This document shows, one piece after another, positions 29,549 through 34,072 of a stretch of DNA of 64,000 bases; within the stretch, counting starts at the first letter, position 1, and each line of letters starts with the position of its first letter. The translations under genes and the position numbers were made by a program. Location: the NCBI GenBank assembly GCA_965238075.1, contig OZ250173.1:416001-480000 (forward strand), in the 5' to 3' direction. The notes beneath the pieces were generated by a model. The model did no database searches and had not been told where the DNA came from. It saw only the letters and a program-made list of their open reading frames with translations. Source of the DNA: Candidatus Entotheonellaceae bacterium (GTDB lineage: Bacteria; Tectomicrobia; Entotheonellia; Entotheonellales; Entotheonellaceae).

Positions 29549-29778
29549 TGATGATTGAAATCCGTTAGCCGGCGAGTGGCAGCCTCACCCGTGCACGGCT
29601 GCCTCGTCGGGAGCGCCGAAGCGTAGATCCATAGCGACCCGCACGACGATGAACTATGCAGACGAACCAATTGCTGGTGATGGTCGTGTCGGGGCTGAGC
29701 TCGGCACCCAACACTTCAACTCCGAGGGAGACGCCGCCGCTACGGACGTTAGAGCGCCACTAACAGCCGTGGCAGGCA

Positions 29779-29806
29779 ACTTCGGATAAGGCCAGTTATG
29801 TTAACT
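29779..29806 (+). other. XerC/XerD dif-like recombination site 1
   Basis: ACTTCGGATAA-GGCCAG-TTATGTTAACT: 11-6-11 layout; right arm 10/11 identical to the canonical XerD arm TTATGTTAAAT. Confidence 0.85.
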
Positions 29807-29875
29807 GGATAGGTTTGGCTACGCCCTCTTTGGCTGTCGGCCCGCGTATCATCTCTTTCACTTGGAGTTGAGGTT

Positions 29876-30610
29876 ATGTTGACTACCAGCAATATAATTC
29901 AGCGAACATTTCACATACGATGGAAAAACTCGACAGGTACGGGTTTTACCGTCGATCATGGCTCTAAGCAGTATCTGGTTACGGCCTATCATGTCGTAGA
30001 TGGGATTAAATCAGGTGATGTCATTAAGATTTTTTATAAAAATGCCTGGGGCGACCTCGTCGTCGATGTCGTAGGAGTCGGTAAGGGCGAAGTGGATGTG
30101 GCCGTTCTTGCATGTTCCGTTCAGCTCTCTCCTTCACTTCCGCTGGTTCCATCGGCAGCGAACCTCTTTTACGGTCAGCCTGTCCAATTTCTGGGATACC
30201 CCTTTGGTTGGGACAGCGGAGGCAAGCGAACATCTGGGAATCGGGGAATCCCATTACCTTTTGTAAAGGCTGGGATCATTAGTGCGCTGGACTTCGACGG
30301 GGATGTAAAACGGATTTTCTTGGATGCGCACGGCAATAAGGGGTTTAGTGGTGGCCCGGTGGTGTTTGAGCCGCATGCGAAACCCAATGCCGAGTTACAT
30401 GTGGCCGGTATCGTCTCATGCTTCCCAATATCGAAAAACTGGCGAAACTGGCTGCCGGTTGTGGACCACACAGGCACCCCGATAACTGATCCTCAAGGAA
30501 ATCCGCTTGGATATGTTCAAGATAACCCTGGAATCGTGGTTGCATTCAACATCAAACACGCCGTAGATATGATTGACGCCAATCCAATCGGTTTTCAGTT
30601 GCCTACATAA
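29876..30610 (+). CDS. trypsin-like serine protease domain protein (cassette 1 cargo)
   Basis: GTGF, LVTAYH (His), DVAVL (Asp), FLGYP, GFSGGPV (Ser); AT-richer codon usage than flanks; GAGG RBS. Confidence 0.8.
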   Translation: MLTTSNIIQRTFHIRWKNSTGTGFTVDHGSKQYLVTAYHVVDGIKSGDVIKIFYKNAWGDLVVDVVGVGKGEVDVAVLACSVQLSPSLPLVPSAANLFYGQPVQFLGYPFGWDSGGKRTSGNRGIPLPFVKAGIISALDFDGDVKRIFLDAHGNKGFSGGPVVFEPHAKPNAELHVAGIVSCFPISKNWRNWLPVVDHTGTPITDPQGNPLGYVQDNPGIVVAFNIKHAVDMIDANPIGFQLPT

Positions 30611-30679
30611 ATGGTCGCCTATATCGTGTGCTACAGGCGGCAAGGCTTAAGTGGCTCTTCTGCATCCTCCACTCAACTT

Positions 30680-33184
30680 GTAGAGTCGGCAACTGGCGCG
30701 GTAGCGGTAGGCGGATGGGGGTAGCTGTTCCCGGCGGCTTTCGCTATGCCGGTGCCTCACTCCATGCCATAACCCCGTTTCCAGTCGCCGCTCATCGAAC
30801 CGGACGTGCAGATCTCCCGCATCCGGCTCTCGGACGAGATCATGCCTTCGCCCACGGAAGGCTTGCCGCTCGCGATCTAAGGCGCGTGAGACCGTACTCC
30901 TGCCACAGTCGCTTGTCCGGGAAGCGTTTGCACTACGGCCCGGTGACACATAGTTCCCTGGCCGCACCTTGTGCTTACGACAGAGCCACCGGCGCAGCCG
31001 CCGTTTGGCATGCCGATCAATCGCCTTGTAAGCTGGGCCGATCTGCCCCAGGATGAAGTAGTTCGCCCATCCGGTCAGAAGCCGGTTCAGGCGCTCCACC
31101 ACAACCTCTGGCGACAGCAGCTCGTTACACGGCATCGTCAACTTGCTCACACGACGGCAGATGCTCCGGACGCTCGCCGCACTCGGGCGGGTGCCAATGT
31201 AGGCACGGCCCGTATCCCGACGGTAGTTGCGTCCAATCCGGTAGCCGAGGAACTCAATCGCCTCCTCCGGCACCCGGCAGCAACGGGTCTTCTCAACATT
31301 GATCGCCAACTTCAGACACTTCATCAGAACTTCGACCGCCGCCAGTATCTCTGCCGCCGGCGCTTTGCCGAGCACCACGAAGTCATCCGCATAGTTGACG
31401 ATCTCTGCCTTGAAGCGCCGGGCATAGCCCAGCACCTTCCAGCCCACGATGAAACGACGCATGTAGATGTTGCTGAGAAGCGGCGAGATCGGTGCCCCTT
31501 GCGGGGTCCCTCTCCGCTCGCACCGCGCCCGATTTGTGCGGCGGCGGCTACCGATGACCGTCGTCCTCCACAACCGCCATCTCCAGCCACGCCTTGATCC
31601 AACCCAACAGTCGCCCGTCACTCACGCGGCGGGCGATGGACCGCATCAACTCCGTGCGGCGCGGCGCGGAATCTGGCCGAAGTAGTCCGACAGGTCGGCA
31701 TCCACCACCTCCCGGTGGCCTGCGTTCAGCAGCCGGTGCACACGCCTGACTGCATCGTGCGCGTTCCGGCCCGACCGGTAGGCATACTGCTCCGGTTGCA
31801 AATCGGTGCCCCTTCGGGGTCCCTCTCCGCTCGACCGCGCCCGATTTGTGCGGCGGCGGCTACCGTGACCGTCGTCCTCCACAACCGCCATCTCCAGCCA
31901 CGCCTTGATCCAACCCAACAGTCGCCCGTCACTCACGCGGCGGGCGATGGACCGCATCACCTCCGCGTCCTGGCGAAGTAGTCCGACAGGTCGGCATCCA
32001 CCACCTCCCGGTGGCCTGCGTTCAGCAGCCGGTGCACACGGACTGCATCGTGCGCGTTCCGGCCCGACCGGTAGGCATACTGCTCCGGTTGCTTCGGCCT
32101 CGAAGATCGGCGACAACACCAACATCGTCTGCGACCCCGGTCCCGCAGACGGGATGCCCAACGGCCGGAATTTACCTTCGCGATGAGAACCTGCCGCGCT
32201 CTCGGTCGGTAGGTCCCCGCCTTCAGGTCTCGCGCCAGTACTCCCAGCCATCGATCCACCCCGAACGCCTCGATGTCCGCCACCGTCTCGCCGTCAACAC
32301 CAGCAGCGCCGCCGTTGCGACGGACTACCTGCCAGGCGACCGCAAGCACGTCTTCGCGCCACACCTTGTCGCTCAGAGAGTAAAACCGCAGGCTCGGAGC
32401 TTCCTTCGCTTTCGCATGTAGCGCCGTCTGGAATCGCTGAACTTTCGCTGAGGCTGTTAGGTTCTCACCAGTCCCCACAACCGCCATCTCACCTTCCTCG
32501 CCCGTCACTCACGCGGCGGGCATACTCCGCGTGCGGAATCTGGCCGCTGCCGGTCTCGAACATCGCCGCCGTCTGCGCCACCCCGGTCCCCAGACACGGG
32601 ATGCCCAACGGCCCCTTCCCGTCTCGCCGTCAACACCAGCAGCGCCGCCGTTGCGACGGACTACCTGCCAGGCGACCGCAAGCACGTCTTCGCGCCACAC
32701 CTTGTCGCTCAGAGAGTAAAACCGCAGGCTCGGAGCTTCCTTCCGGCATTACCCGACTTCACCGGTACTACGAGCCTCTCCGCCACCCTGCCGGCCCGAC
32801 TCGGCCCTCACGGGCTGTCGGTTGGCGCGTGCCACGCCACCAGCCAGGGCTTCCCGTGTTGTGTCCATTCCCCTGTTCCATGCGTGCTGCCGGCCAATAC
32901 CCCGGCGGAACCCGTCGGTGCTTGCGTCGCTCGCTTCCCGACGGGTAGCAGCCTTCCCCGTTATCAGGGCGGGTCGGCTTCCGCATTATGGCTTTCGAGG
33001 CCTGCTCGGCGTTCACTCACGTTACGGCCCGCATGGTCGCTAAGCCGCCCTGGGCGGCCCGTTCCACCGGAGTGCTTCAGACGATATCGTTACCTCCATC
33101 ATCCGCTCCGACTGCTACCGGCTGGAGCGACAGTTGCCGGACGGGATTCGCACCCGCTGAAGAATGGCGCCTTTCACGGCGCAC
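30680..33184 (-). mobile_element. group II intron (IIB-like, AGC triad) inserted in dif-like site 2
   Basis: 5' end GTGCGCCGTGAAAGGCG at 33184; domain V GAGCCGGATGCGGGAGATCTGCACGTCCGGTTC at 30829-30797; 3' end ...CCGACTCTAC at 30680; internal RT/maturase. Confidence 0.9.
30840..32468 (-). pseudogene. ltrA: intron-encoded reverse transcriptase/maturase, frameshifted and internally duplicated
   Basis: Fragments across frames: [76 protein letters not shown], ending SLPWAKA*; no endonuclease domain seen. Confidence 0.85.
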
Positions 33185-33208
33185 CCGATAAGCCCTTATA
33201 TGTCGCCT
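33185..33208 (+). other. dif-like site 2, right portion (left 4 nt ACTT at 30676-30679)
   Basis: Joining the intron flanks gives ACTTCCGATAA-GCCCTT-ATATGTCGCCT. Confidence 0.7.
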
Positions 33209-33244
33209 TCGGATGCGTTCCGGAGGCGTGGCTGGCAATTTCCG

Positions 33245-33568
33245 TTATTCACCCGCAGCCCTTTTTAACGCTTTCCAAATACGCCTTCCGACCGTCCAGA
33301 CAAACCACACAAGGAAGACACCGACTCCGAGCCCCCCGACGATGACCAGAACGTCAAGCAGATCATTCCGAAAGGCGGCTTGCCATCCAGCCTTGCGTAT
33401 CAGTTCTTCCACTGCCGCGTCGAGCTCTTACTCGGTCATGGGTTGTCTTTGTCCCCATTTCCATATCGTCCAGCCAGCCCACCCGAGAAAGCCAACGCCA
33501 CCGAGCGTCAAGAAGATGAACAGGTCGGAAAATGAAAAGGGCAAATTCCCCCTTGACCCTCGTTTCAT
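33245..33568 (-). pseudogene. small membrane protein interrupted by an in-frame TAA (33428-33430)
   Basis: GGAGAGG RBS; MKRGSRGNLPFSFSDLFIFLTLGGVGFLGWAGWTIWKWGQRQPMTE*ELDAAVEELIRKAGWQAAFRNDLLDVLVIVGGLGVGVFLVWFVWTVGRRIWKALKRAAGE*. Confidence 0.5.
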
Positions 33569-33649
33569 GATCTGTTCCTCTCCCCTTGCCTTACAGGGTG
33601 CCGTATGTCGCCCGTGCCTACTCTGTCACGTTTAGGAGACTTTGGAGAG

Positions 33650-34054
33650 ATGATTGAAGACCCGAACCTTACACGTCAGATACTTGAGTACTTTGCCCAA
33701 GAGGATGTGACGTTCCCCGCCAACAAAATGGTGGAGGACGACCTCACAGAAGCATTCCCCAATGATGAACTCTCTCGCCTCGAATACCATGTGATGTGTG
33801 CCAAAGAAAACGGGCTTCTCATAGTAGACATCCGGGAAAACCCAATGATGGACGGTACGGTGTTCGTCTTCGGTTTCATCTCAGGGCTTACAGCCAAAGG
33901 CAGCGAATATGTCCGCGGGTCTCGTAGCAAGTACTGGGCCGAGGCATGGAAACAGATCAAGAGCAAAGGAATGGAGGTTACAACGAAGCTCTTGATCGAA
34001 GTAATGTTTAAGCTGATGTCGTCATCCCTGTCAGCCGCGCCCAACTTCGCATAA
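33650..34054 (+). CDS. DUF2513-like winged-helix protein (cassette 2 cargo)
   Basis: MIEDPNLTRQILEY..LEYHV....ENGLL..ISGLTAKGSEYV....W..AW..IK pattern; GGAGAG RBS; stop codon lies inside the XerC arm of site 3. Confidence 0.65.
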   Translation: MIEDPNLTRQILEYFAQEDVTFPANKMVEDDLTEAFPNDELSRLEYHVMCAKENGLLIVDIRENPMMDGTVFVFGFISGLTAKGSEYVRGSRSKYWAEAWKQIKSKGMEVTTKLLIEVMFKLMSSSLSAAPNFA

Positions 34055-34072
34055 GGCCCCAATATGTAAACT
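34044..34072 (+). other. XerC/XerD dif-like site 3
   Basis: ACTTCGCATAA-GGCCCCA-ATATGTAAACT (7-nt centre); right arm 10/11 identical to the B. subtilis-type TTATGTAAACT. Confidence 0.7.

Follow-up and report, generated by a model that had tools for sequence, protein, structure and literature searches.

A group II intron in the XerC-type arm of a dif-like site in a Candidatus Entotheonellaceae genome, and its probable retargeting to dif-type sites

A split dif-like site and its intron

The locus described here lies in a 64,000-nt stretch of a Candidatus Entotheonellaceae genome (contig OZ250173.1; G000:C1:416001-480000, hereafter the window). The genome, G000, is assembled as one 3.35-Mb contig with 62% G+C. 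Two short gene cassettes in the window are bounded by sites that resemble dif, the Xer recombination site, and between the cassettes a decayed group II intron on the minus strand separates the two parts of one such site (site B; Table 1). Group II hallmarks are present: 5' GUGYG and 3' AY ends, domains V and VI (D5 and D6), a match to domains I-IV, and an open reading frame (ORF) for a reverse transcriptase (RT)/maturase in domain IV. On the minus strand the junctions read ...CTTATCGG|GTGCGCCGTG at 33185/33184 and ...GCCGACTCTAC|AAGTTGAG at 30680/30679. Comparison of more than 20 related copies showed that similarity begins exactly at GTGCG and ends exactly at GACTCTAC. Another 3' end, at 30715 (36.9 bits, below the family cut-off), was rejected since copy similarity continues to GACTCTAC. 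In a consensus fold of nine copies from several phyla, D5 is canonical and D6 is long (about 110 nt) and conserved, its closing helix stopping 7 nt before the intron 3' end. No second D5 of this type was found in G000.

Removal of the intron joins AACTT to CCGATAAGCCCTTATATGTCGCCT (33185-33208) and gives ACTT|CCGATAA-GCCCTT-ATATGT, so that the intron sits between the outer and the inner part of the XerC-type arm. The rebuilt site agrees at every one of 23 bases with an uninterrupted site elsewhere in G000 (3299035, minus strand). Site C, one of the two intact sites in the window, has a spacer of 7 nt if ATATGT opens its right arm. In domain I, the loop CUGAUAA (32967-32961), exon-binding site 1 (EBS1), pairs at all seven positions, with one G-U pair, with the intron-binding site 1 (IBS1) UUAUCGG at the end of the 5' exon. 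By reading, the same loop forms six of seven pairs with site A and five of seven with site C. A preliminary description of this DNA, made from the letters, had placed the intron ends at GTGCG (33184) and CTCTAC (30680), had proposed that excision rebuilds a site like A and C, had assigned CUGAUAA to the EBS1 loop and had noted its poorer pairing with A and C. Each of these points was upheld: the ends by Rfam and the multi-copy comparison, the rebuilt site by the 23-base identity, and the loop by the Rfam hairpin and by covariation with IBS1 (below).

The part of the intron that encodes the intron-encoded protein (IEP) is rearranged. A 324-aa remnant keeps Pfam matches to RVT_1 and GIIM, frameshifts and repeats break the ORF, and the intron aligns to a 1994-nt relative in overlapping, out-of-order segments. 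Seven direct-repeat families of 125, 100, 67, 52, 32, 32 and 25 nt, most of them 99-100% identical, were found in the ORF region. The repeats of the RT gene (30847-32760, minus strand) are spaced 293-447 nt apart, for which a long-read assembly artefact and a real rearrangement are both conceivable. The best solved relative is the GsI-IIC RT (E = 7.3e-46), which names the nearest structure only; matches to plasmid ltrA do not exceed 58% identity.

Table 1. Position of the intron, its parts, the dif-like sites and the cassettes in the window
Feature	Position	Strand	Evidence or remark
Group II intron, decayed copy, 2505 nt, 5' GUGCG to CUCUAC 3'	30680..33184	-	Rfam; multi-copy comparison; 5'-junction contigs of 3 runs
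Part of domain I, Rfam group-II-D1D4-4 (RF02003)	33017..33159	-	93.7 bits (gathering score 49)
EBS1 loop CUGAUAA in hairpin GCCGACCCG-CCCUGAUAA-CGGGGAAGGC	32961..32967	-	Hairpin in Rfam alignment; covariation with IBS1 in 71 copies
Domain IV with broken IEP gene	30847..32760	-	Repeats; Pfam RVT_1 and GIIM; segment map against an intact-length copy
D5/D6 model match (RF00029)	30831-30680	-	44.6 bits (gathering score 40)
Domain V	30797..30831	-	RF00029 alignment; consensus fold of 9 copies
Enlarged domain VI, about 110 nt, end CGACUCUAC	30680..30796	-	Consensus fold with conserved closing helix; kept in all copies
Site B, right part: inner XerC-type arm CCGATAA, spacer GCCCTT, XerD-type arm ATATGTCGCCT	33185..33208	+	5' exon on the intron strand, IBS1 UUAUCGG
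Site B, left (outer) part: AACTT	30675..30679	+	Start of 3' exon on the intron strand, AAGTT
Intact dif-like site A: AACTTCGGATAA-GGCCAG-TTATGTTAACT	29778..29806	+	
Intact dif-like site C: AACTTCGCATAA-GGCCCCA-ATATGTAAACTT	34043..34072	+	
Cassette 1: 244-aa trypsin-like peptidase ORF (29876-30610)	29807..30674	+	Pfam Trypsin_2, E = 9.3e-14
Cassette 2: 140-aa ORF (33213-33635) and 149-aa ORF (33605-34054)	33209..34042	+	149-aa ORF: weak DUF2513, below Pfam cut-off

Target pairing and insertion sites of related introns

The exon-intron pairing was followed across 71 copies in an alignment (A1) that takes in 16 nt of exon and the intron up to position 250. The stem of the EBS1 hairpin is nearly invariant and its loop is the most variable part. 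The seven exon-loop pairs are formed in 86.7% of cells, and compensatory changes on both sides occur at all seven. When the whole structure is scored, including a weaker second helix, 73.5% of cells are paired against 46.1 +/- 1.3 in shuffles (none of 500 reaches the observed value), and pairing drops to 33-42% when the partner is slid by 1-3 columns. One compensatory pair, CGGAUAA with UUAUCCG (L011), lies within the class of copies inserted in dif-like sites (the dif class). Other EBS1/IBS1 pairs include ACAGAAA/UUUCUGU, GUGAAAU/AUUUCGC, UGAAUUA/UAAUUCA and CGUAUUAC/GUAAUACG. Targeting of the group IIC type, as at attC sites, was ruled out, EBS1 being 6-7 nt long and covarying and the target having no stem-loop; the 5' exons of the dif class merely carry ATAA(G)/(C)TTAT around a 6-7 nt spacer, and insertion falls inside an arm. 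At exon positions -16/-15 of the whole family, TA was observed in 24 of 68 distinct 5' exons (T in 35/68, A in 39/68), often as TAG or TAA; where a dif-class site has a 6-nt spacer, this place coincides with the TAA of its XerD-type arm. The IEP may make a distal contact here, or these introns may tend to insert directly behind stop codons.

Matches to the intron were found in six of 61 genomes, G000 included. All the genomes are metagenome-assembled. The sister genomes G001 and G003 carry ten and six matches at 91-94% identity, G013 has two at 78-81%, and G002 and G029 have short matches only. The G001 copies include ORF-less derivatives (L047-L050) that measure about 877 nt and of which two are nearly identical, as well as a copy of 1994 nt whose RT is frameshifted. 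Full-length copies of the family were limited in the genus-level data to L045 and L061, which share one RT frameshift (180-aa and 352-aa ORFs). One dif-class copy, of 2907 nt (L046, G001:C1:3106661-3109967), has its interior replaced by a different, intact 440-aa group II RT (P0002; TIGR04416, 368.8 bits) and may be a nested intron, or twintron.

The genus-level loci have 20 distinct 5' junction flanks, of which ten are dif-like (nine by regular expression, plus the ACATAT variant of the window). In these, an ACATAA-like arm is followed by 6-7 bases and TTATCNG, and the cut is always ACTT|CNGATAA. The spacers differ between junctions (e.g. CCGCCC, CGCGGGG, CCTCCC, TGAAGGC), and so do the outer flanks. 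On the other side, dif-class 3' exons begin with AAGTTG (four distinct ones, that of the window included) or AAGGTT. At least six distinct AAGT/AAGG 3' exons were counted: four among the 18 compared, that of the window, and a relic at G000 727820, where a 34-nt, 5'-truncated intron end is joined to AAGTCG, as would fit aborted reverse transcription. The insertions into dif-like sites are thus repeated and independent. As a control, metagenomes were scanned for TTATCNG followed by GTGCGCCGTG (query TTATCNGGTGCGCCGTG). At least 118 stretches were returned, most of them chance 17-mers in genes or other intron families, and a XerD-type arm was present upstream in none of the 80 matches examined. 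The scan serves as a control only and is uninformative on spread.

Empty alleles exist for one insertion in G001 (L008). Its 3' exon (AAGTTGACGAGGGAACTCGTCAT...) has 94% identity in G005 and 84% in G000 (2474169, minus strand), both of which carry TTATCAG|AAGTTGAC... uninterrupted, and the homology begins at the first base after the intron. On the opposite side of the site, G001, G005 and G000 carry different DNA, as exchange at the site would give.

Apart from a few singletons, the remaining genus-level junctions belong to two repeated targets, CATTTCGC|CCTTTTCCGCAACCGACCCC and TTTTCTGT|TCCATTGCTACTCAAAGGCC. The second target, CATTTCGC|CCTTTTCCGCAACCGACCCC, is used by L045, L022, L023 and L039 (G001/G003) and is also seen at G000:C1:368230-368301; at least four loci have identical sequence over the 20 nt of its 3' exon and diverge beyond them, so that the exon resembles the terminus of another repeated element. 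The third, TTTTCTGT|TCCATTGCTACTCAAAGGCC (variant TCCAATGATTGTCACGGGCC), is used by L017, L034 and L041-L043. Its empty copy in G000 (G000:C1:368565-368640) is followed by two stacked intron 3' fragments that end in GACCCTAC and GACTCTAC, and the same composite is present in G001 and G003. At L002 (G000:C1:1443365-1443389), a 25-nt intron 5' fragment follows ...TTTATTGTCGG, with no recognisable dif-like arm.

Beyond the genus, 80 related loci were kept, with protein identities of 76-100%. The closest are labelled Candidatus Entotheonella and Candidatus Tectimicrobiota, and the hosts include metagenome-assembled genomes of Vicinamibacterales, Terriglobia, Gamma- and Alphaproteobacteria, Binatia and others. 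In this wider family, introns from several phyla are 77-85% identical, and end to end the related intron RNA is 80-85% identical. One locus (L063) encodes an intact 463-aa IEP with RT and maturase domains and without an endonuclease (En) domain, and relatives match TIGR04416. No hairpin shared among the targets of the wider family was found; one related locus (L081) has an AAGTTG 3' exon.

Accessory dif-like sites, cassettes and the putative true dif

G000 contains about 20 sites of the form AACTTC-NG-ATAA(G), 6-7 bases, (T/A)TATGT-NAAC(T)T, which have two arms of about 11 bp with inverted inner parts and a spacer of 6-8 bp, as dif sites do. The pattern CTTCNNATAAN{6,8}TATGT has 17, 17, 12, 27, 1 and 9 matches in the six genomes of the genus, G000-G005 respectively, and the reversed pattern has 0-1 (17 against 0 in G000 alone). 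In other genera of the family and in other phyla, mostly 0-2 matches were found (six in G009). With the outer left arm left free, G000 has 23 matches against two when the sequence is read backwards, and 19 of the 23 look real. An AACTT-like outer arm is kept in 18 of these 19 sites; the nineteenth is the split site of the window, where GCGCAC, the complement of the intron 5' end, stands in its place. Because the displaced outer AACTT is so conserved, it is plausible that the insertion disables or weakens site B.

Most of the G000 sites are clustered, with one orientation per cluster (at 0.445, 1.32, 1.93, 2.08, 2.65 and 3.29-3.30 Mb), and the clusters bound short stretches of one or two genes; at 3.30 Mb these encode DUF5677, DUF6988 and FRG-TPR proteins. 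In the window, cassette 1 has no match in G001-G005, and in the same genomes only the site ends of cassette 2 were matched. The flanking genes (MR_MLE enolase-type and DsbA-like) are shared with G005 and G001, where other DNA lies between them. In two public short-read runs from one sample (X2 and X5), one contig per run joins 29776 to 30674, dropping cassette 1 exactly between two CAACTT repeats and entering the intron 3' end. The shorter side of this join has 23 letters and is flagged unreliable; the join may represent an allele without cassette 1 or a second insertion.

Each of the six genomes has exactly one copy of a 22-mer, CTTCTGATAAGTTATATTATGT, always intact, and in G004 this copy is the sole match. 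Its G000 position, 3.139 Mb, is 20 kb from xerD and, with dnaA at 1.860 Mb, about 0.3-0.4 Mb from the antipode. GC skew in G000 is weak, with a minimum near 1.9 Mb after detrending by hand. This invariant 22-mer is likely the true dif, and it lies outside all the site clusters of G000. It reads UUAUCAG|AAGU, a perfect match to EBS1, yet no intron occupies it in any of the six genomes, not even in G001, where intron copies are numerous; presumably, insertion there is selected against. The modules known as pdif modules have inverted flanking sites and are carried on plasmids, and integrative mobile elements exploiting Xer (IMEX) integrate at chromosomal dif. Neither arrangement was found in G000, where the sites of a cluster share one orientation and the putative true dif is in no cluster.

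Both Xer recombinases are encoded by G000 and pass the equivalog cut-offs (XerD: TIGR02225, 370 bits, cut-off 329.6; XerC: TIGR02224, 337.5 bits, cut-off 335.15), and integron-integrase models score far below their cut-offs on both proteins. There are five tyrosine-recombinase matches in G000, none inside the clusters. Because the cassettes have no recombinase, the accessory sites are most likely used by the host XerC and XerD. About 3 kb from a lone dif-like site (373774), a tyrosine recombinase gene is split into two Pfam matches (G000:C1:376888-377378, L055).

Interpretation and comparison with known systems

Based on these comparisons, we are fairly confident that the window contains a decayed homing-type group II intron without En, with a IIB-like EBS1 of 6-7 nt, and that it belongs to a sub-lineage, within the genus labelled Candidatus Entotheonella/Tectimicrobiota, that was retargeted to dif-type sites. 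The strand entered by the intron RNA is the one reading XerD arm, spacer, XerC arm, and insertion by reverse splicing falls between the outer four and the inner seven bases of the XerC-type arm (ACTT|CNGATAA), with EBS1 CUGAUAA pairing with the inner arm read as UUAUC(A/G)G. Its targets are the accessory dif-like sites, which number 9-27 per genome in five of the six genomes and stand as direct repeats around short strain-specific cassettes, and which offer a conserved, repeated, non-coding and probably horizontally mobile landing pad. Lacking En, the intron might be primed at the replication fork, by analogy with introns covered in the accessible part of a review (PMC4424553). The window copy is on the would-be lagging-strand template if forks start at dnaA, which is one data point.

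Several observations weigh against this interpretation. The window copy is dead, its RT being scrambled, and all the family RT copies seen in the genus are frameshifted; because of this, present-day mobility is inferred only from the two near-identical ORF-less copies in G001. Sister copies with 91% identity in the same genomes use the two other repeated targets, and among the 80 cross-phylum loci none of the 70 with a readable 5' junction is dif-like, their targets being unrelated. The candidate EBS2 (columns 221-226 against exon -14 to -10) is paired in 54.9% of cells, with an ambiguous register. For site B of the window itself, G001-G005 yielded no allele free of the intron, and the genomes are all metagenome-assembled, with completeness of 91-93% in the genus. 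The accessory spacers, of 6-8 nt, have GC-rich centres, as opposed to the AT-rich centre of the putative true dif, and action of XerC and XerD on the accessory sites is no more than hinted at by comparison of sequences. The preliminary description had raised the possibility that the lineage specialises in Xer/dif sites. In the genus-level data this held for a sub-lineage, with dif-like sequence at half of the distinct 5' junctions, matching AAGTT or AAGGT 3' exons and intron-free alleles of one G001 insertion in G005 and G000; it did not hold for the sister copies at the two other repeated targets or for the wider family. Because no wider-family junction is dif-like, dif targeting appears, among the genomes searched, to be a retargeting event within one genus.

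An alternative is that the 28-30 bp repeats belong to another repeat family, such as the boundaries of an unknown recombination system or elements like repetitive extragenic palindromes, that resembles dif without being used by Xer, and that the intron homes to this repeat. The GC-rich, variable accessory spacers of 6-8 nt would agree with this, as would conservation that runs a few bases past the 11-bp right arm (e.g. AACTTTGCC) and the fact that the hints of recombination are comparative. However, both arms match the invariant single-copy site of all six genomes, that site lies in the chromosome half opposite dnaA, and most other genera have a single match, as expected of dif. Moreover, XerC and XerD are present with no other recombinase in the arrays, and one site has a shared left flank in three genomes but differing right partners, as expected of exchange. 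We therefore regard a non-Xer origin of the repeats as unlikely.

It is very improbable that a single ancestral insertion was followed by spread of site and intron together through duplication or recombination, with no repeated homing to dif-like sites. The G001 copies are 91-100% alike, and Xer spacer exchange or recombination between intron copies could reshuffle flanks, but ten distinct dif-like 5' flanks and at least six AAG-type 3' flanks would each need an insertion of their own. The spacers differ, full-length and ORF-less forms coexist, the compensatory EBS1 change of L011 fits its own site, empty orthologous sites exist, and 5'-truncated relics joined to AAGT fit aborted reverse transcription. 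Misjoining of a multi-copy metagenome family between two unrelated cassettes, which would make the window intron an assembly artefact, we consider extremely improbable. Such an error is suggested by the seven perfect or near-perfect internal repeat families in the ORF part, by the depth of intron words in the runs (in the thousands), and by contigs within the scrambled ORF, some of which match the reference and some of which omit 291 and 438 nt. Four public runs were compared by their short-read contigs, X2 and X5 being from the one sample and X6 from another study; RNA runs X16-X22, which contain small shares, were outside this comparison. Against the artefact, contigs of X2, X5 and X6 cover cassette 2 together with the adjoining 39-41 nt of the intron 5' end, with zero differences, and all four runs have contigs that span cassette 1 from site A on and take in 23-25 nt of the intron 3' end, which is below the 31-letter bridging rule. 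In addition, the site rebuilt from the exon ends recurs, identical over 23 bases, elsewhere in the genome.

A broader picture can be put forward tentatively, and we hold it to be somewhat doubtful. The genus may run an integrase-less, Xer-driven chromosomal cassette system, an analogue of the integron built on dif-like sites, which is parasitised by a dedicated group II intron lineage. The intron might lock cassettes in place or ride them between genomes, and the essential dif might be kept free by selection or by occupancy with XerCD/FtsK. With a lineage aimed at Xer/dif sites, introns would be seen for a second time to have colonised recombination sites of mobile cassettes, here through plain retargeting of EBS1; such a lineage would also be pitted against a site whose master copy the host needs to segregate its chromosome. 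Because the putative true dif matches perfectly and is empty in all six genomes, one can test directly whether insertion there is selected against or the site is protected. A little-studied pool of cassettes that lack recombinases and have dif-like sites at their borders also comes to light in uncultured Entotheonella/Tectimicrobiota, and the intron family, whose RNA is near-invariant while its EBS1 loop changes freely from phylum to phylum, forms a natural series of retargeting.

No description of introns that home to dif sites turned up in full-text literature searches, in which papers were judged by title and the start of the abstract, and two of them (PMC6053426, PMC4612135) by passages as well; the searches did not extend to subscription journals or supplementary files. 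In the consulted portion of a 2015 review, the specificities of bacterial group II introns are given as homing sites, terminators and attC. Group IIC introns are described there as recognising DNA motifs, namely terminators and attC inverted repeats, and En-minus bacterial introns (classes D, E and F) as primed from the replication fork (PMC4424553). The homing-type En-minus introns of the same review resemble the window lineage in having RT and X domains without En and in choosing targets by base pairing; the target of the window lineage, a site of the chromosome-dimer-resolution type, is not among the specificities listed in that portion.

The closest parallels, as far as the available parts of the sources go, are with cassette systems. 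The IIC-attC introns of integrons (PMC3001079, PMC4424553) likewise lack En, occupy non-coding recombination sites that bound cassettes, have many targets and can travel with cassettes. They differ in that they target the attC of an integron integrase and recognise a motif, whereas the site here is of the Xer/dif type, with an inverted repeat of 4-5 bp and no integron integrase, and is recognised through a covarying EBS1-IBS1 pairing of 6-7 nt. The group IIB introns in halophile integrons and clusters of attC sites lacking integron integrases (CALINs) are, like the window lineage, non-IIC introns in cassette arrays, and include bacterial class E IEPs. Their arrays are built on attC, and the introns are few and mostly truncated, with no dif/Xer site, unlike those of the window lineage (PMC7923331). 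The cassettes themselves can be compared with the pdif and chromosomal dif modules of Acinetobacter and with IMEX (PMC12907356, PMC7399989, bioRxiv 10.64898/2026.06.12.731946), which are likewise bounded by XerC/XerD-type sites, carry no recombinase of their own and are thought to be moved by the host Xer proteins. In contrast to these modules, the cassettes of the window genus lie between direct repeats in chromosomal clusters away from the true dif, carry no resistance genes, and belong to an uncultured genus of the Tectimicrobiota type.

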